Shown here: in pieces, positions 568-63,989 of the stretch
Layout: the number at the start of each line of letters is the position of its first letter
Position numbering within the stretch: position 1 is the stretch's first letter
Source: Erysipelotrichaceae bacterium
GTDB taxonomy: Bacteria > Bacillota_I > Bacilli_A > RFN20 > CAG-826
Assembly: GCA_012518415.1 (NCBI GenBank)
Contig: JAAYSH010000035.1
Span: forward strand, 934-64,933
Reading direction: 5' to 3'
Length of the DNA: 64,000 nucleotides
Translations under genes and position numbers: made by a program
Notes under the pieces: model-generated
What the model was told of the DNA's origin: nothing
Seen by the model: the letters and a program-made list of their open reading frames with translations, nothing else
Database searches by the model: none

Positions 568-1506
568 TTAATCACCTTCTTCTTCATCTTTTAAAACGTC
601 CGCACGCCATTTCTTAATCGTTGCGCCTTGGACTGCTCTTTTGGCATCAAAGTCTTCCATTTCATAAATATTATTAAATATAACTGATTCTTTTGTATCA
701 ACACATAAGGTGCCTGCCGCAAGATCGGTTAAGGAGCGGCCATCTTTGCGTACTGTTAAAATGACCACAGATATAATCGGTAGTAGTAAAAATAAACCAA
801 CAAAATTAATTAATACACTTGTAACTGCCCGATAAGGCTTGTGAGCTTTTGCCATCTTAAACCCATACATCGTTACAAACCCTAACCGCATAACGAGATG
901 ACCTAAAGTTGCCCCATGGGGAGTAAAGGACGGGATTATTAAAAAGAAAATAAATATAAAAATCGCATATGTAATTAGATGACCTTGTGCTTGAAGGTCG
1001 CCAAGTGGTTTCGCTAAGTTTATAAATGCTGTAGTTGCCTCAAGATCATTAATTGCCGCTTGATAAGCTTTCTTATAAAAATTCTTCGCATCAGCCTCTT
1101 TTCCTTGCTTAACTTTTACTTCCCATGGTGTTGATGTCATAACCGGAGTAGAAAAATCAAATAAGGTATCAGCGCTTTTGCGAAGCAATATTTCATCATA
1201 GTATTGATCGATTGAGTAGGGTTTTGTTGCTAAATCGGATTCGACATAGTAGCGATAAATCGCTTCAGGATACTCTTCCTCAGGCCGAGCATTAATAGAA
1301 TGAGTATGATTGTTAATAACAAGTAAATGACTATCAAGCTGTAACCTTGTTATATCTCTTGTTAATTGTTCAGCCCCAAAATGCTTACCTAAAATTGGTA
1401 CAGTTGCTAAAGCAAACGTACCTTCGGCAAAAGTAAACAAAATTAAAAGATTAAATAGCAGTGCTACAACACGGCGACCTAATTTAGCTGGTTTAATATA
1501 TTTCAT
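568..1506 (-). CDS. RDD-family integral membrane protein with a large extracytoplasmic loop between TM1 and TM2
   Basis: N-terminal GRRVVALLFNLLIL, central GATLGHLVMRLGFV and C-terminal GRSLTDLAAGTLCVD match the RDD (Arg-Asp-Asp) family signature. The ORF is 312 aa and tandem with a paralog. Confidence 0.6.
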   Translation of the reverse strand: MKYIKPAKLGRRVVALLFNLLILFTFAEGTFALATVPILGKHFGAEQLTRDITRLQLDSHLLVINNHTHSINARPEEEYPEAIYRYYVESDLATKPYSIDQYYDEILLRKSADTLFDFSTPVMTSTPWEVKVKQGKEADAKNFYKKAYQAAINDLEATTAFINLAKPLGDLQAQGHLITYAIFIFIFFLIIPSFTPHGATLGHLVMRLGFVTMYGFKMAKAHKPYRAVTSVLINFVGLFLLLPIISVVILTVRKDGRSLTDLAAGTLCVDTKESVIFNNIYEMEDFDAKRAVQGATIKKWRADVLKDEEEGD

Positions 1507-1512
1507 AATAAA

Positions 1513-3021
1513 TTAATTGTCTGTTTCATCTTTTTTATTATCTTCACTTGACTCGTTAGGTTCTTCACGGTGTTCTTCGCCACGAGTAAAGATCGATTCA
1601 AATTGATCGCTAGTAATTTTATTTTCTTCTTCCTCATCTTGGCTTGTAATCGCCCCTGCAAGTTCGGCTTTATCTTCTTCACTTAATGTTGCCGCTGGAC
1701 CACCAAGTAAGCGGTCTTCAAAATTAACCCACTCTTCATCGCTTTCTTCTTCAACGAAAACTTGCTCTTCAATCGGGTTATCTTTTAGTTCACTTTCATA
1801 ATCGGGATAAATTTTTGCAACCTTAAGATGAACTGGTCTTGTTCCAGCAATAAAGTCATGCAATGCACGGTTCTTTTTACCGAAGGTCGCCATTGTAAAT
1901 GAAATGAATGTGAAAATTGGAAGCATTCCGCCCCCGCCGACGAAAAAGATAAAAAATACATCTAACATAAATGTTAAAAGGAAAAAGGCAATGTATCTTG
2001 CAATAATTTGCCACCATTTAGCTTTATATCCGTATGTATTAACAATACCAAGACTTAGGAGCTTTTTACCTAATGTTGCTCCGTGTTTAAATACAAGTGG
2101 GAATAAAAGATAGACGATTAAGGAAGAACCAAATAGTGAGAGTATAATAGCAACTGACCCTTTTTGATTAATTATTTGTGCATCTGCCTGAGCGTTTAAA
2201 TCATTTCTTGCACTCGTATATAAATTTGCAAAAAATTGATCTGCTTCGGCTGATTTCCCTTCTTTAATCGCTACCCCGGGGGGAAGGTGATGTGCTTCAG
2301 GCACGGCAGCATTTACTTGAACTGCCTGTTTTTTCGAGTTAGGCTCAAGAATTCCAGTACTTTCGAAAATTGATGCGTCTAATTTATCAGTTTTTGGTTG
2401 ATCAACACGTAAAATGCGTTCTTTAAACCACGTAACCGGATCATCTCTAAAGTTATGAACAGTAATATATTGGCTATCAATTACATCAAGACCGAGATTA
2501 TTAAGTTGCTCTTCGATCTCAGCGTTTGCTTCTTTTCTAAATGTAATGAGCTGTTCATTAATCTCTTCGCCTTCTTTAAAATATAACTGGCGAATATATT
2601 CATAACTTTCATTTATTCGATCATATTTATATTTCGTATAAAACTCTAATACGGCTGCACTTTGAAGATATTTATCTTTAACAGCTGAAGTATAACCTAC
2701 AACACCTTGTGGTAGTCTTGGACCATATATAAGTGATAATTCAGTTAAATCTTCACCATATTCGCCAACATAAGTAATTGTATAAAGGCGCGAGTTGTGC
2801 CGGTCCATATTTGATGCGCGCTCATGTAAGTCGATTTGACTAGTCGCATTTAAGATTGGTCGAGCGACTCCGTAAAAACCAATAAAAAATAAAACTATCA
2901 TTATAATGAAGTCGATAAGTGCAGCCCCAAATCTTCGACCAGGTTTTGGTAAAGGAGCAAACCTCGCCTCAGTTGGAACTTGTCTTTGTCTAACCGTTGA
3001 ATCCGTCTTTGTTGTTGTCAT
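1513..3021 (-). CDS. RDD-family integral membrane protein paralog, with a ~250-aa extracytoplasmic domain and an acidic C-terminal tail
   Basis: PGRRFGAALIDFIIM (N-terminus), GATLGKKLLSLGIV and KNRALHDFIAGTRPV (C-terminus) are RDD motifs. The tail is acidic (EEESDEE...SSEDNKKDETDN). AAGGAAG RBS upstream. Confidence 0.6.
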   Translation of the reverse strand: MTTTKTDSTVRQRQVPTEARFAPLPKPGRRFGAALIDFIIMIVLFFIGFYGVARPILNATSQIDLHERASNMDRHNSRLYTITYVGEYGEDLTELSLIYGPRLPQGVVGYTSAVKDKYLQSAAVLEFYTKYKYDRINESYEYIRQLYFKEGEEINEQLITFRKEANAEIEEQLNNLGLDVIDSQYITVHNFRDDPVTWFKERILRVDQPKTDKLDASIFESTGILEPNSKKQAVQVNAAVPEAHHLPPGVAIKEGKSAEADQFFANLYTSARNDLNAQADAQIINQKGSVAIILSLFGSSLIVYLLFPLVFKHGATLGKKLLSLGIVNTYGYKAKWWQIIARYIAFFLLTFMLDVFFIFFVGGGGMLPIFTFISFTMATFGKKNRALHDFIAGTRPVHLKVAKIYPDYESELKDNPIEEQVFVEEESDEEWVNFEDRLLGGPAATLSEEDKAELAGAITSQDEEEENKITSDQFESIFTRGEEHREEPNESSEDNKKDETDN

Positions 3022-44814: not shown

Positions 44815-45490
44815 TTATCTATTTTTTAGTTCTTCAGCTTTTTGTTTGGCTAATGCAGCTTCATTTCTTTTTTGACCGTCTTTATATGTATAAATACAGC
44901 CGCAGTAGTTTTGATTATATAGTTCAAACTCTTTTGTGAGTTGGTCTTTTACTATTTGTCCATTTCCCTTTTTAAAATCACTATAAAAATATTTTGTTTT
45001 TGGAAATAACGATGCAAGTTTTTCACCAATTTCATTTAGTTTTATCGCATCTTTTTGTCTAGATATACTCATTACAGTTGTAAAGTACTCAAAGCCATTT
45101 TCTTGTGCGAACGCAAATGCTTCTTTCATTCGGTTTTCAAAACATATATGGCATCTTTTTCCGCCTTCTTTTTCATCCGCGTATGGACTTAGTACTTCTT
45201 TTTGATACGTCTCATCATAGGCGAAAGCAACCAAATTAATTTTATGACCGTATTTTCTCTCAAACTTTTTAAGCATCTCTTCTAAAGTCCATAATCTTCG
45301 TTGCCATTCACTTTTTGGAAAAATATTTGAGTTATTATATGTAAGTGTTACTTCAAAGATTTCTGCAAGTGCAAGTAGCGGTCCGCTTGTACACGGCCCG
45401 CAGCAAACATGTAGCAATAAACTTGGCTTTTTGCCGCTTTGTTTAATCTTTGCTATTTCTTCTTGTTGTAGTTTAAAATATTTTCTTTTA

Positions 45491-45513
<23 letters not shown>
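44815..45513 (-). CDS. queH: Epoxyqueuosine reductase QueH (DUF208)
   Basis: LLLHVCCGPCTSGP Cys cluster plus a later CHICF...C pair; directly downstream of queA-tgt. Confidence 0.7.
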
Positions 45514-48163
<2,650 letters not shown>

Positions 48164-55676: not shown

Positions 55677-56126
55677 TTAATTATTTTTTGAAGAAATATA
55701 TTGTAAAATCGCACTCGCACCAACTATAGAATTAATAAGTTCGTTATTTTCAATAATGAGTAAAGTTGGTACACCTTCGATGATAACATGAGGGATAAAT
55801 TCACTAGTTAGCATTGCTTTTGCCTTTTTATAATTAACTAGATAATGCGGCCTGTTCTCAAGAAATTCACTAATTTCACTCGCAATACTTCCGCAATAGC
55901 CGCATGTTTCACTATAAATATAAACATAGTAAAAATATTGTTCTTGATTAAGAATCTCATCTAACCCAATTTCTTGAATAGTTGATGTATAAGAACTAGG
56001 CGAAGTTACCAAAACCGTATGTGATTGTTCACTTTCATAGTGTTTGCTTGGCACAATGCTATAACCCACACCAATTTCAACCGCGATTAAAAGTATCGTT
56101 CCAAATTTAATTAAGTTGTGTTTCAT
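55677..56126 (-). CDS. Membrane-anchored thioredoxin-fold protein (CxxC)
   Basis: N-terminal TM followed by a YSETCGYCGS active-site-like CxxC; 149 aa. Confidence 0.6.
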   Translation of the reverse strand: MKHNLIKFGTILLIAVEIGVGYSIVPSKHYESEQSHTVLVTSPSSYTSTIQEIGLDEILNQEQYFYYVYIYSETCGYCGSIASEISEFLENRPHYLVNYKKAKAMLTSEFIPHVIIEGVPTLLIIENNELINSIVGASAILQYISSKNN

Positions 56127-56189
56127 ATTATTAAATAGGAGATAAAAACGAGTTAGCGTTTGTTTTATTTAACATGGTAAAATAAGTAC

Positions 56190-57080
56190 ATGAGAAAACG
56201 AGTAACATTAATAGAAAACATTACTTTTATGGCAATCATTGCTGCGTTTTATGCGATTGCGTCTTTAATCGTATCGTTTGTCCCGGCCTTATCGCTATTA
56301 TTCATGCTCGTATTGCCACTTCTTTCTGTACTTGTTGTATTATACTGTGAAAATAAATATTTAATCATTTATTTTATCGCTGCTTTAGTATTATCACTTA
56401 TTGCTTCCATTCATAATTTGTATGTTTCCTTCTTTTATTTAATTCCTGCTCTTATAACTGGAATTGTAATGGGTTTATTAATTAAGGCGAAAGTTACTTC
56501 TTCGCTTGTTTTTTTACTAACATCTTTCATTCAAGTTGGAATTAGTTTTCTTGGCATCGTCTTTATTCGCTGGATTTATGAAATCGATATCGTTAACTCG
56601 ATTTTGAGTTTGCTAAATTTAACCGCGCATCCACATAAGTTAACAATTGTTTCCGTATTTATTTTGTTAATGGCCTATGCCCAAACTGCTTTATCACTCA
56701 TAATTGTTGAAGATGAGTTACCAAAGCTTAACTTAGAAATTAATAATGAATATATTCCGTATACTTCGCTTATTAGCTTAAGTTTATACATTATCGGTGC
56801 TCTTATCTTAGCTTTTTATCCTCCGATTGCCTACATACTCGTTTTTGTATATATATATTTAAGTTTAACTTCTTTATTATTTATATATAAAAATGAGCAG
56901 ATCGGTAAAAAGTTGTTAATTACCGGTTTTGCGCTTTTTGTCGTTTCATTTTTTGCTAGTAGTGTTTTGCTAGATTCTATTTATGTGCCCTTTGTATTTG
57001 GTATAATATTTATACCTTCCGACACTTATTTAGTAGTAAAATATATTAAAACGTGTCGAAAGCGCCGAAAGGATCGTTAA
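56190..57080 (+). CDS. Polytopic membrane protein (~8 TM), unknown function; first gene of a plus-strand three-gene operon
   Basis: 296-aa hydrophobic ORF with no recognisable motif; basic C-terminus (KTCRKRRKDR). Confidence 0.5.
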   Translation: MRKRVTLIENITFMAIIAAFYAIASLIVSFVPALSLLFMLVLPLLSVLVVLYCENKYLIIYFIAALVLSLIASIHNLYVSFFYLIPALITGIVMGLLIKAKVTSSLVFLLTSFIQVGISFLGIVFIRWIYEIDIVNSILSLLNLTAHPHKLTIVSVFILLMAYAQTALSLIIVEDELPKLNLEINNEYIPYTSLISLSLYIIGALILAFYPPIAYILVFVYIYLSLTSLLFIYKNEQIGKKLLITGFALFVVSFFASSVLLDSIYVPFVFGIIFIPSDTYLVVKYIKTCRKRRKDR

Positions 57081-57607
57081 TGTTAAAGTCATTTTTTAAA
57101 CGGATTGGAATTGGTTTGCTTACTGTTTTAGGGCTGCCATTTTTTCTCGCTATTTTATTATTAGGACTTGTTTACACAATAATTACCTGGATAATTATGT
57201 TCTTTTGGGCGATTGGGCGCTTCTTCTCAGGGAAAAAAGTATTTGGTCCGACTGGGCGCGATATCCAAGCAGCAAGAATTTTAAAGCGGAGGCTCCAAAA
57301 AGAGCAAGATGAGTTAGACGCTCCAAAAGAACCGCAGCAAACACTTAATATTCAAAATGCGATTTTTTACCAAGGCCCGCAAGCAAATATCCCGCAGGAT
57401 TTCGCTCAACATCAAGCACTTGGTTCTCAAGATGAACCTCAATACATCGAAGAAAATGAAACAAGCGGATATATTACTACAAGTGAACAAGATGAACATG
57501 AAATTATTGACCCTAACGATTTCGTCGAGTCCGAAGTTTATTCAAACGAAGATGAAATAGATTTATACAATGATGAAGATGATGGAGGTTTTTCAAGTGA
57601 TAATTAA
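57080..57607 (+). CDS. Membrane protein with 2 TMs and a ~100-aa acidic, disordered C-terminal tail
   Basis: Start chosen at the ATG overlapping the upstream TAA (TAATG) with an AAAGGA RBS. The listed ORF from 57053 is probably over-extended. The tail is rich in D/E/Q. Confidence 0.5.
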   Translation: MLKSFFKRIGIGLLTVLGLPFFLAILLLGLVYTIITWIIMFFWAIGRFFSGKKVFGPTGRDIQAARILKRRLQKEQDELDAPKEPQQTLNIQNAIFYQGPQANIPQDFAQHQALGSQDEPQYIEENETSGYITTSEQDEHEIIDPNDFVESEVYSNEDEIDLYNDEDDGGFSSDN

Positions 57608-58283
57608 TCCTCTTATTTTAAACAATGCAAACCAAAGAGAAATATGGCGGATTATCCTCGTTATTTTCATTTTCTTGTTAATTATTTTAGCCCTTTTCTC
57701 ATTAATTTTTGATTTAGTTAAAGCGATTATGATTAGGCAAGGACGAAAAATTGATGGGGCAATGATCAACTTAACTGACACTGGGTTAATTGAAGGACAA
57801 AGTGATTACCGGAAAACAGCCCGAAGAAAAAGTCGGATGATGTTATTTAAAGCAATGATGATACCGATATTATTAATTGTTACTGGTTTAATTATCCACT
57901 TCACTTATACTACAATTATTGGTCGCGCAATTAATTTATGGGATTATGAAAGGGAAGGATTTCGAACAATTATGTATGTTCATGATTGGTCAAATATTCC
58001 ACGAGTAAAAGTGTTTGGTGTTAGTGTCATCTCCGACTGGCCGGCTTTATTAAATAAGCCCCACTTTGAAGTTGAGGCAATTGTAAGTTATATCGTCTTA
58101 CCGCTTTATGTTATTGGTGGAATTTGTTTACTAGTCACAACCCAGGCACATATCGCAAGATTTATCCGTATTGAATACTTAATTAAAGAGCACTATGAAA
58201 GTGATATATCAAAAAAGCAGCTCTATGATACTAGTGCTGCTAGTTATGAGTATCGTGAAAGTGAAGACACTCTCGAACAATAG
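57597..58283 (+). CDS. Membrane protein (3 predicted TM), unknown function; third gene of the operon
   Basis: Probable GTG start, 9 nt after a GGAGG, overlapping the previous gene's end. The alternative ATG at 57570 has no SD. Confidence 0.5.
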   Translation: MIINPLILNNANQREIWRIILVIFIFLLIILALFSLIFDLVKAIMIRQGRKIDGAMINLTDTGLIEGQSDYRKTARRKSRMMLFKAMMIPILLIVTGLIIHFTYTTIIGRAINLWDYEREGFRTIMYVHDWSNIPRVKVFGVSVISDWPALLNKPHFEVEAIVSYIVLPLYVIGGICLLVTTQAHIARFIRIEYLIKEHYESDISKKQLYDTSAASYEYRESEDTLEQ

Positions 58284-58308
58284 ATAACCGTACCGGTTAT
58301 CTTTTTTT
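58283..58308 (+). terminator. Rho-independent terminator of the plus-strand membrane operon
   Basis: GATAACCG-TAC-CGGTTATC 8-bp stem immediately followed by T7. Confidence 0.7.
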
Positions 58309-58477
58309 ATTTTGTTAATAAATCATTAACTAATAAAACAACTTGAATCGCAATAAAAATAACAAGCGCGATATCAACGCCGATTACAAAATATGTGAGG
58401 CGTTTTCTTTTTAATTGTTCCCGCTCCTCAGCTGTTAAATTATCAACGATTTGATATTTGCGTTTATTGTTGTTCAT
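58307..58477 (-). CDS. Hypothetical small single-TM protein (56 aa), immediately upstream of asnS
   Basis: Hand translation gives MNNNKRKYQIVDNLTAEEREQLKRKRLTYFVIGVDIALVIFIAIQVVLLVNDLLTK. No clear RBS. It is convergent with the terminator above. Confidence 0.25.
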   Translation of the reverse strand: MNNNKRKYQIVDNLTAEEREQLKRKRLTYFVIGVDIALVIFIAIQVVLLVNDLLTK

Positions 58478-62449: not shown

Positions 62450-62539
62450 AGTTTACCTTCCTTTATGTCCAGGCGTAATTATAGCATAATTAACGATTTT
62501 ACCTATAATATTATGTATACAATGCCGAGGTGTTTATTT

Positions 62540-63445
62540 ATGAAATTATATGATTTAGCAATTATTGGCGCGGGCCCAATCGGGCTTATCGCTGCGAGAA
62601 AAGCCCAGGACGCTAATTTAAATACAATTATTTTTGAATCTCGAGAGCGCGTTGGTGGACAAGCGATTGAACTATATCCCGAAAAGGAAGTCGTCGATTT
62701 AATTGATACGCCAGTCATGTTAGCGAAAGATTATGTCGATTTACTCGTTGATAAACTAGAGTTTAATGAGCGACTAACTCTAAAACTTAATACATCTGTA
62801 GTTAAAGTCGAAAGTAAAGATGATTATGTTAGTGTGATTACTTCTAGTGGTGAAGTATGGGCGAGCAATGTCATTGTTGCGACTGGTTTAGGTATATATA
62901 CTCCGCGCCCAATGGGAGTTGAAGGCGAAGATAAATACGAAGAAATTGCTTACTCCGTCCAAGATTTTTCGCATTTTAGCGATAAAAAAGTATTAATTCT
63001 GGGCGGCGGCGATAGTGCAATCGACTGGGCGAAGATGGTTTCTCGGATTAGTAGGGATGTTTATTTAATTCACCGCCGTAATACTTTTCGCGGCAACATC
63101 AACACAATCGATGGAATTGATACAATTACTATATTAACTCCGTATGTTCCAAAAGAAATTATTGGTGAAAACGGTAGACTAAAAGCATTAATAGTCGAAC
63201 ATACCGAAACGAAAGAGTTGGTTAGTTTAGATGCTGATTACATTTTAGTTAACTACGGAAATATCCCTCGTGGGGACTCGCTTGGATTAGAAAGTTTAAA
63301 CCGGGGAATTAAAGTTGATGAGAACTTTTCCGCTGGTCGAAATATTTATGTCGCAGGTGATGTCGCGGCTTATCCAAATAAAAAGAAGCGAATTCTCCCA
63401 GGAATTGAGGAACTCGCTCGTATTTTCAAACAAATTATTACTTAG
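62540..63445 (+). CDS. FAD-dependent ferredoxin--NADP+ reductase type 2 (YumC-like), a thioredoxin-reductase-fold protein with no CxxC
   Basis: IIGAGPIGL (FAD-binding), LYPEK, ILGGGDSAIDWA, IHRR..FR, LVNYG and AGDV motifs shared with B. subtilis YumC. Start set at MKLYD (GAGGTG RBS); the listed ORF start at 62465 is over-extended. Confidence 0.75.
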   Translation: MKLYDLAIIGAGPIGLIAARKAQDANLNTIIFESRERVGGQAIELYPEKEVVDLIDTPVMLAKDYVDLLVDKLEFNERLTLKLNTSVVKVESKDDYVSVITSSGEVWASNVIVATGLGIYTPRPMGVEGEDKYEEIAYSVQDFSHFSDKKVLILGGGDSAIDWAKMVSRISRDVYLIHRRNTFRGNINTIDGIDTITILTPYVPKEIIGENGRLKALIVEHTETKELVSLDADYILVNYGNIPRGDSLGLESLNRGIKVDENFSAGRNIYVAGDVAAYPNKKKRILPGIEELARIFKQIIT

Positions 63446-63446
63446 T

Positions 63447-63989
63447 CTAGCGTTTTACTTCCGCAGAGAATATTGAATAATATTTTCTTACATATTCATC
63501 ACTAAAAGGGGGGAACCCCTTTTTCATTTGATTTAAAACTTTCTTTGTTTGATCAATTAAAACAGTAATTAAATCTTCGCTATATCCATACTTTTTTATA
63601 TGGGCAACGTATTCTTTTTCATCGAGTAAGAGTATATCCCCACTAGGGAACTTCTTAATATCAAGATCGTAGTCGATATATTTAATAATCCCCTTATGCA
63701 TAATTGATGGTGAGGCGATATTTGTATAAAAGGAGATACCCTCTTCTTTAAACATGGCGATTGTATTCCACCAGTAGGTTTTAGAGTAAAAGGTGACGGA
63801 AGGTTCTTTTGTCCACCACCGCCGACCGTTTTCTTCAATTACTTTCGTCTTTTTACTTGCAACAATAAAAAACTCATCGTTATCTTCAACTAAATAATTT
63901 CTCTCCCACATCCGATGGAGTGAGCCATCATGTTTATAACTTTGAACAATTAGCCAATTATTATTCGGATTAAAACTCATAATACCCAC
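63447..63989 (-). CDS. DUF402/UPF0374-family protein (nucleoside tri-/diphosphatase-like)
   Basis: 180 aa; the YKHDGSLHRMW N-terminal motif recalls the Firmicute YgaC/Ntdp family. Assigned from memory, not verified. Confidence 0.45.
   Translation of the reverse strand: MGIMSFNPNNNWLIVQSYKHDGSLHRMWERNYLVEDNDEFFIVASKKTKVIEENGRRWWTKEPSVTFYSKTYWWNTIAMFKEEGISFYTNIASPSIMHKGIIKYIDYDLDIKKFPSGDILLLDEKEYVAHIKKYGYSEDLITVLIDQTKKVLNQMKKGFPPFSDEYVRKYYSIFSAEVKR

Follow-up and report, generated by a model that had tools for sequence, protein, structure and literature searches.

A conserved three-gene membrane-protein operon with a divergent DUF2232/YybS-like protein in uncultured Bacilli

The window analysed here is a stretch of 64,000 nucleotides (nt) of DNA from Erysipelotrichaceae bacterium (GenBank assembly GCA_012518415.1, contig JAAYSH010000035.1, positions 934–64,933 of the forward strand). 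Three overlapping plus-strand open reading frames (ORFs) of this window, designated P1, P2 and P3, form a compact operon between pcrA and asnS. The operon is real, translationally coupled and tightly packed, and its conserved core consists of P1, a small protein with two transmembrane (TM) segments and P3. As judged from profile searches, P1 is a divergent protein of the DUF2232/YybS family, and P2 and P3 are families without a match in Pfam, NCBIfam or PADLOC and without a solved structure. We tentatively propose, by analogy and with low confidence, that a YybS-type capture subunit may act here together with two accessory subunits and a shared energy-coupling factor (ECF) module.

Operon structure and conservation

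All three ORFs were found where an earlier note on this DNA had placed them (Table 1), and the junctions agree with its description. The stop codon of P1 and the ATG of P2 have one base in common (TAATG), and a Shine-Dalgarno (SD) sequence, AAAGGA at 57068–57073, lies 6 nt before the P2 start. P2 and P3 overlap by 11 nt; 8 nt before the GTG of P3 stands the SD sequence GGAGG (57584–57588). This GTG, rather than the ATG at 57570, is regarded as the start of P3 because the N-termini of the homologues (M-INP...) begin at its equivalent. The operon is closed by the terminator that had been described at its end: a 9-bp hairpin with a T-run was found at the point where transcription converges with the asnS/small-ORF unit. 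NCBIfam confirms pcrA and asnS, between which the operon had been placed, as well as the flanking ligA and tsaD. The triad had also been called the sole plus-strand unit of this region; this holds for positions 1–62464, short spurious ORFs aside. The rest of the 64-kb window lies nearly entirely on the minus strand; it includes gatA/B, ORFs of the size of rpoB/C and the operons of ribosomal proteins.

Scanning metagenomes with five sequences of P3 gave 39 loci, mostly from rumen/gut-type metagenomes, which were mapped by jackhmmer and hidden Markov model (HMM) searches. Co-occurrence was counted over 39 P3 clusters at 90% identity. The earlier note had made its case depend on co-occurrence of the genes outside this genome, and such co-occurrence was found: P1 accompanies P3 in 22 of the 23 clusters with more than 1.7 kb of upstream DNA, and P2 does so in 27 of the 30 clusters with more than 700 nt. 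The thioredoxin-like gene is present at 17 of the 21 clusters with more than 2.3 kb. The same arrangement is seen on the locus map in every locus with a long enough contig, and the intergenic distances within the triad are overlaps or at most 21 nt in most loci. In the metagenome-assembled genome (MAG) of a sister species, “Bacillales bacterium UBA5455”, the proteins are 50% (P1), 42% (P2) and 61% (P3) identical to those of the window, and the gene order is gatA-gatC-ligA-pcrA-trx, then P1-P2-P3, then small ORF-asnS-tsaD-rimI-tsaB-tsaE. Recurrence of the triad exceeds chance, because the P1-P2-P3 order is repeated in dozens of metagenomic contigs at 25–60% protein identity.

The triad occupies at least three different genomic contexts. 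The first is the block between pcrA and asnS with the thioredoxin-like gene. In the second (locus L054) the triad follows pcrA without a thioredoxin-like gene, and genes for a bacterial-PH-domain protein and an RNase T-like protein precede asnS. In the third (loci L014 and L056) a P1 homologue, a 75-aa ORF with two TM segments and a P3 homologue are found near CSD, LacI, PFK and lepA, and the thioredoxin-like gene is not beside them. Since these divergent contexts keep the triad without the thioredoxin-like gene, that gene does not belong to the core.

Some loci carry additional genes. A fourth gene of 162–174 aa, with overlapping or adjacent stops, follows P3 on the plus strand in L014 (4091–4582), L056 (7735–8259) and L054 (7605–8093). 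A bacterial PH domain was detected in the L054 protein (bPH_3, E 6e-7); those of L014 and L056 belong to no family. In L013 (GCA_964371305.1, 1853–3057 (+)) P1 and a P2 of 79 aa without a tail are separated by two additional family-less ORFs (179 and 178 aa), and P3 is lengthened to 319 aa.

Table 1. Coordinates of the operon and of the features next to it in the window
Feature	Positions	Strand	Description
P1	56190–57080	+	296-aa polytopic membrane protein; ORF call
P2	57080–57607	+	175 aa; 2-TM hairpin and acidic tail; ORF call
P3	57597–58283	+	228 aa; 3 TM; GTG start; ORF call
Thioredoxin-like gene	55677–56126	-	149 aa; CGYC; N-terminal TM segment; divergent from P1
Extended -10-like box TGGTAAAAT	56175–56183	+	6 nt 5' of P1 ATG; from sequence
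Intrinsic-terminator-like hairpin and T-run	58282–58309	+	hairpin 58282–58302, 9-bp stem, 3-nt loop
56-aa single-TM ORF	58307–58477	-	immediately downstream of asnS; neighbour outside the triad

The P1, P2 and P3 families

It had been noted earlier that none of the three proteins shows a recognisable motif. This stands for P2 and P3, which have no family in the libraries searched, and does not hold for P1. Pfam DUF2232 (PF09991) is matched by 15 of 19 diverse P1 orthologues (best E 2e-7), and any other Pfam family among these 19 amounts to one chance-level match. The match covers the N-terminal ~120 residues; the C-terminal half of P1 is not recognised by the DUF2232 profile. The P1 homologue of L054, which is matched by the P1 family HMM with E 9e-35, scores 41.2 bits against DUF2232, above the cut-off of 27.8. 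Because the window protein itself stays under the cut-off and the L054 protein exceeds it, membership of P1 in DUF2232 is supported via intermediate sequences and not by the window protein alone. Scans of NCBIfam and PADLOC gave no match for P1, P2 or P3.

P1 is predicted to contain ~9–10 helices, and not the ~8 counted previously. Residues Y83, P86, G91 and G95 are invariant in the family alignment. C53 is conserved in 89% of the sequences, and a second frequent Cys column (79%) is occupied by Ser in the window protein. The first TM helix carries a small-xxx-small motif, A15/A19, of which A15 is Ala, Gly or Ser in the orthologues and A19 is Ala in 89%. This motif recalls the AxxxA docking motif of ECF S components; small-xxx-small motifs are common in TM helices, so that it is weak evidence for S-component docking.

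P2 consists of a conserved N-terminal 2-TM hairpin of ~75 aa and a variable tail. The consensus of the hairpin is M..LLK.FGKGILYVL.LPF......FFTG..F.ELPED, and K7, P20 and G51 are nearly invariant in the family alignments. The acidic disordered tail of ~100 aa described earlier is confirmed for the window protein: it comprises 109 aa of low complexity, with 26% Asp+Glu and 5% Lys+Arg. Throughout the family the tails are low-complexity, acidic and Pro-rich, and their length ranges from 45 to ~190 aa; in some lineages P2 is reduced to 75–79 aa and has no tail. The tail ends with a short semi-conserved motif (..ED..D.GV.I.YD), which in the window reads DDGGFSSDN. Pfam searches on 24 P2 members revealed no shared family and no match to CbiN. 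The 2TM family (PF13239) was hit by the window P2 alone (1 of the 24 members), with 19.2 bits versus a cut-off of 24.8, and a word-index search with P2 returned near-identical sequences only.

The P2 homologue of L053 (5110–5898 (+)) is peculiar in having a zinc ribbon (CPYC...CFSC; Zn_ribbon_8, E 4e-4) inside the disordered tail; no zinc-ribbon match was seen in the remaining 23 members of the alignment. The P2 tail is probably cytoplasmic, because the L053 homologue carries the zinc ribbon there.

For P3, 1.84 billion representatives were searched exhaustively with a profile. The family comprises 190 clusters (50% identity) at E≤1e-3, of which 60 also pass E≤1e-30, with full-length matches of 205–250 aa in nearly all of them. 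Named relatives are few, being “hypothetical protein” entries from Bacilli or Bacillales MAGs, and the hosts of the family are all uncultured Bacilli. The most conserved positions are R188 (97%), Y165 (92%), G141 and P155 (88% each), K78 (84%) and D53 (82%). No cysteine is conserved, the maximum Cys frequency of a column being 0.14. Loop 1 is very basic (on average 10.7 Lys+Arg), as is the C-terminal helix (Q183..A187 R188..R191), and loop 2 contains the conserved pattern FG...WP...P.F...A..SY. From the positive-inside rule, loop 1 and the C-terminus are predicted to be cytoplasmic and loop 2 to face outward.

Pfam searches on 105 P3 members produced no consistent family, and the scattered matches are attributable to the composition of the TM segments. 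The P3 profile gave negligible matches to PDB sequences. Its conserved Arg-containing cytoplasmic helices raised the idea that P3 is a split or miniature EcfT. This idea was rejected: at E≤10 the profile of 105 sequences matched none of the EcfT chains of the PDB, and there was no CbiQ/EcfT match in Pfam among the 105 members.

Possible functions of the operon

We infer that P1, P2 and P3 assemble with each other. They would be subunits of one cytoplasmic-membrane complex around the YybS-type P1, and translational coupling would give matched synthesis of the subunits. By analogy with Bacillus subtilis YybS, P1 would be a substrate-capture (S) subunit docking on a shared EcfA/A'/T module encoded elsewhere, and its cargo would be an imported compound, possibly an envelope-related one. 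P2, with its two TM segments and putatively cytoplasmic acidic tail, and P3, with three TM segments, a predicted outward loop and basic cytoplasmic segments, may then serve as accessory or regulatory subunits. Their role would loosely resemble that of CbiN or NikN beside CbiM or NikM.

The analogy originates from a preprint in which YybS is proposed to be an ECF S subunit (10.64898/2026.05.13.724699). The evidence given there comprises Foldseek similarity of YybS to S subunits, an AlphaFold 3 complex of YybS with EcfT, EcfA1 and EcfA2 (interface predicted TM-score, ipTM, 0.84), loss-of-function suppressors in yybS, ecfT and ecfA2, and a correlated transposon-sequencing profile in Staphylococcus aureus (10.64898/2026.05.13.724699). 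A literature search on COG4241 returned nothing.

P1 resembles YybS/DUF2232 proteins (B. subtilis YybS, S. aureus SAOUHSC_00014) in its family match, its polytopic nature and its size (~290–310 aa), and their hosts are likewise Bacilli using ECF S components. It differs from them in that only the N-terminal ~120 residues align, that the window P1 remains below the gathering score, and that P1 is always trailed by two small membrane-protein genes which are undescribed for YybS. The genomic context is different as well from the yybS-gdpP-rplI arrangement of Bacillus and Staphylococcus.

The window contains a queuosine salvage cluster on the minus strand (44815–48163), formed by QueT (47633–48163), tgt (46522–47649), queA (45491–46525) and queH (44815–45513). 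Since QueT is an ECF S component, the host appears to use such components, and the shared energising module should be encoded elsewhere in the genome. Genes of ThiT, RibU and QueT are also found near the triad in relatives.

The accessory role suggested for P2 and P3 has a conceptual precedent. In CbiM with CbiN, and in NikM with NikN or NikKL, a polytopic capture subunit is encoded beside a small 2-TM protein needed for function. The likeness of P1 and P2 to these pairs is one of concept. P2 matches neither CbiN, nor NikN, nor any other Pfam family above threshold; it appears to form a tight hairpin followed by an acidic, probably cytoplasmic tail, in contrast to two helices joined by an outer loop. 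Moreover, unlike CbiMN and NikMN systems, the triad operon has no genes for T (CbiQ/EcfT) or A (CbiO/EcfA) components, and P3 has no counterpart in those systems.

Several observations weigh against ECF coupling of the triad. The window P1 scores 22.8 bits against DUF2232 (E 6e-5), under the cut-off of 27.8, and in the window, L054 and L056 proteins the match spans profile positions 2–120 of 290. No ecfA or ecfT is present in the operon or in the 64-kb window. With 296 aa and ~9–10 predicted helices, P1 is larger than classical S components (~180 aa, 6 helices). The P1 profile hit no PDB chain at E≤10, including the solved S components, and hhalign comparison of this profile with QueT, ThiT and RibU of the fetched loci was not significant (best P 0.04). 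S components are mutually dissimilar in sequence, so that a negative comparison of this kind is weak. The predicted structure is of low confidence (predicted local distance difference test score, pLDDT, ~47), and no structural support for the mechanism was gained from it. At one locus, L055, a weak P3 relative is accompanied by an unrecognised 179-aa ORF upstream and has no adjacent P1. Finally, the link between YybS and ECF itself consists of modelling and genetics, with no transport assay (10.64898/2026.05.13.724699).

It is about as likely, and equally tentative, that the triad forms a self-contained membrane complex outside ECF transport, such as a sensor or signalling device, a handler of lipids or envelope precursors, or a scaffold. 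In that case the N-terminal half of P1, though similar to DUF2232, would be no more than a shared helical module, which agrees with the confinement of the match to less than half of the profile, with the lack of detectable sequence similarity to S components or EcfT and with the absence of ECF genes nearby. Through its acidic disordered tail and the motif at its C-terminus, P2 would recruit or regulate a partner in the cytoplasm. The semi-conserved end of this tail, its dispensability in lineages with a P2 of 75–79 aa and the extra lineage-specific genes after the triad (the PH-domain gene of L054, the ORFs of 163–174 aa in L014 and L056) fit a self-contained complex. Against this explanation, P1 orthologues match no family apart from DUF2232, and what has been published on YybS speaks for a coupling to ECF. 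Furthermore, the triad contains no enzymatic motifs, and there are no Pfam, NCBIfam or PADLOC matches that would favour a particular alternative activity.

Promoter region and neighbouring genes

No SD sequence was found upstream of P1 in the window. Of 17 divergent loci, 15 have a TAAAAT-like hexamer 5–9 nt ahead of the P1 start codon, and none has an SD-like motif there. The same test was positive in 3 of 13 loci for asnS, in 1 of 14 for pcrA and in 0 of 15 for the small ORF; it was positive also upstream of P2 in 12 of 17 loci, which means that it is not clean in AT-rich DNA. In the distant loci L054, L056 and L014 a -10 box is followed by an SD sequence before P1. Judging from its position, it is plausible that the TGGTAAAAT box of the window is the candidate promoter of a leaderless P1 mRNA.

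Three loci of a rumen sub-clade (L022, L044 and L053) contain the perfect palindrome TTGTGA-N6-TCACAA in the intergenic region that separates P1 from the thioredoxin-like gene. It is centred ~38 nt upstream of the P1 ATG and spans about 29–47 nt upstream of it; variants are found in L024, L040, L042 and L046. The palindrome resembles operators of the Rex or CRP/FNR type. It is not present in the window spacer or in UBA5455. Co-regulation of the two divergent genes via their shared 63-nt region in the window is possible.

Another element, TAAAATATTATTAC(C/G), is conserved ~10–25 nt before the P2 ATG in the rumen sub-clade (L036, L040, L044, L046, L051 and others). This element, which could act as an internal promoter or as a signal for translation, does not occur in the window; P2 is preceded there by an ordinary SD sequence and has the TAATG overlap.

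The divergent gene encodes a membrane-anchored CGYC protein of the thioredoxin fold, as had been stated earlier: it matches Pfam Thioredoxin (PF00085) with 32 bits, above the cut-off of 23.5, and has one N-terminal TM segment. The window copy possesses the CGYC and the cis-Pro (GVPT) and has an uncleaved TM anchor instead of a lipobox. CxxC and cis-Pro (GTP(T/S)) are conserved in 17 orthologues, most of which have a signal peptide with a lipobox and are predicted to be exported lipoproteins. NCBIfam PedC/BrcD (TIGR01295) was matched with 27.5 bits (E 2.3e-6) and its cut-off of 120 was not reached; one orthologue shows a weak PedC-like match in Pfam. The protein shares the thioredoxin fold, CxxC, cis-Pro and membrane or lipid anchor with oxidoreductases of the PedC/BrcD, ResA/StoA and SdbA types, and differs from them in having no bacteriocin genes and no CcdA/DsbB partner nearby. 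The protein is best regarded as an extracytoplasmic thiol-disulfide oxidoreductase, linked to the triad by synteny and not as its obligatory partner.

The earlier note had suggested that the triad and this neighbour are an envelope redox or stress module, and this suggestion is not upheld. In such a module, with one shared divergent promoter, the membrane proteins would re-oxidise or reduce the exported CxxC protein, serve as its clients or help to assemble it. The divergent layout with the 63-nt spacer speaks for it, as do the adjacency in 17 of 21 contexts, the conserved CxxC and cis-Pro of an exported or lipid-anchored protein, a weak thioredoxin reductase-like gene nearby (62465–63445) and the palindrome of L022, L044 and L053, which fits one regulator for both genes. 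However, the triad contains no conserved Cys pair: P2 has no Cys at all, none is conserved in P3, and in P1 only C53 is well conserved, the second frequent Cys column being Ser in the window. There is no similarity to CcdA/DsbD, DsbB or VKOR in Pfam and NCBIfam, the palindrome is absent from the window and the sister species, and in the most divergent contexts (L014, L054, L055 and L056) the thioredoxin-like gene is not beside the triad. The adjacency elsewhere carries little weight because the block from pcrA to tsaE, within the gatA-to-tsaE region, is syntenic as a whole in the main clade and is not independent evidence. The thioredoxin-like gene is thus a clade-specific neighbour within a wholly syntenic block, and a joint redox module appears quite unlikely.

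It is very unlikely that the three genes encode functionally unrelated membrane proteins which share a transcript in a compact genome: none of them has a demonstrated function, and P2 and P3 evolve fast (25–35% identity where asnS and pcrA stay highly similar), but the order of P1, the small 2-TM protein and P3 survives relocation to other neighbourhoods and is kept across the 39 clusters, and the start/stop overlaps recur. Two further ideas were discarded, namely a membrane thiol relay (CcdA/DsbD, DsbB, VKOR) for P1–P3, on cysteine content, and an anti-phage defence role, on the PADLOC result and the core-genome context.

Returning to the YybS-type complex, one can imagine a broader scheme, in which a three-subunit DUF2232/YybS-type capture unit with two new families would represent a new architecture of uptake or sensing, ECF-type or ECF-independent, for an envelope-related compound. 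It would be made from a leaderless mRNA and, in some lineages, controlled by a Rex- or CRP/FNR-like operator shared with an exported thiol oxidoreductase. In its entirety this scheme is unlikely.

The new points are the placement of P1 as a putative divergent branch of a known, barely characterised family and the fixed three-gene architecture around DUF2232. DUF2232/YybS proteins are widespread in Bacillota, and their tie to ECF transport and cell-wall homeostasis is very recent and comes from a single preprint. A lineage with a YybS-like gene locked to two dedicated small membrane partners is a natural starting point for learning what such proteins form complexes with. Two uncharacterised families are defined in addition, namely the P2 hairpin proteins and P3, the latter with ~190 clusters at 50% identity. 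In practical terms the findings are of modest value: the host Bacilli, from gut, rumen or digester, are uncultured, nothing points to a substrate or an activity, and the suggested connection with redox chemistry did not hold.

Some other genes of the window deserve mention. The 56-aa ORF downstream of asnS encodes an N-terminal motif LT.EER..L..KR followed by a TM helix and has no family match. It shows 33–59% identity in relatives and adjoins asnS in almost all loci; in L054 it remains with asnS, though other genes part the asnS side from the triad. It is probably a genuine small membrane protein whose gene is transcribed together with asnS. A single other gene in the vicinity lies on the plus strand (62465–63445) and encodes a 326-aa pyridine-nucleotide-disulfide oxidoreductase with a weak thioredoxin reductase match (108.8 bits versus a cut-off of 343). 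Its position by tsaE and a DUF402 gene, in a region that takes in 63447–63989 (-), is kept in closer relatives. At the start of the window (568–3021 (-)) two adjacent genes encode membrane proteins of the RDD family, of 312 and 502 aa.

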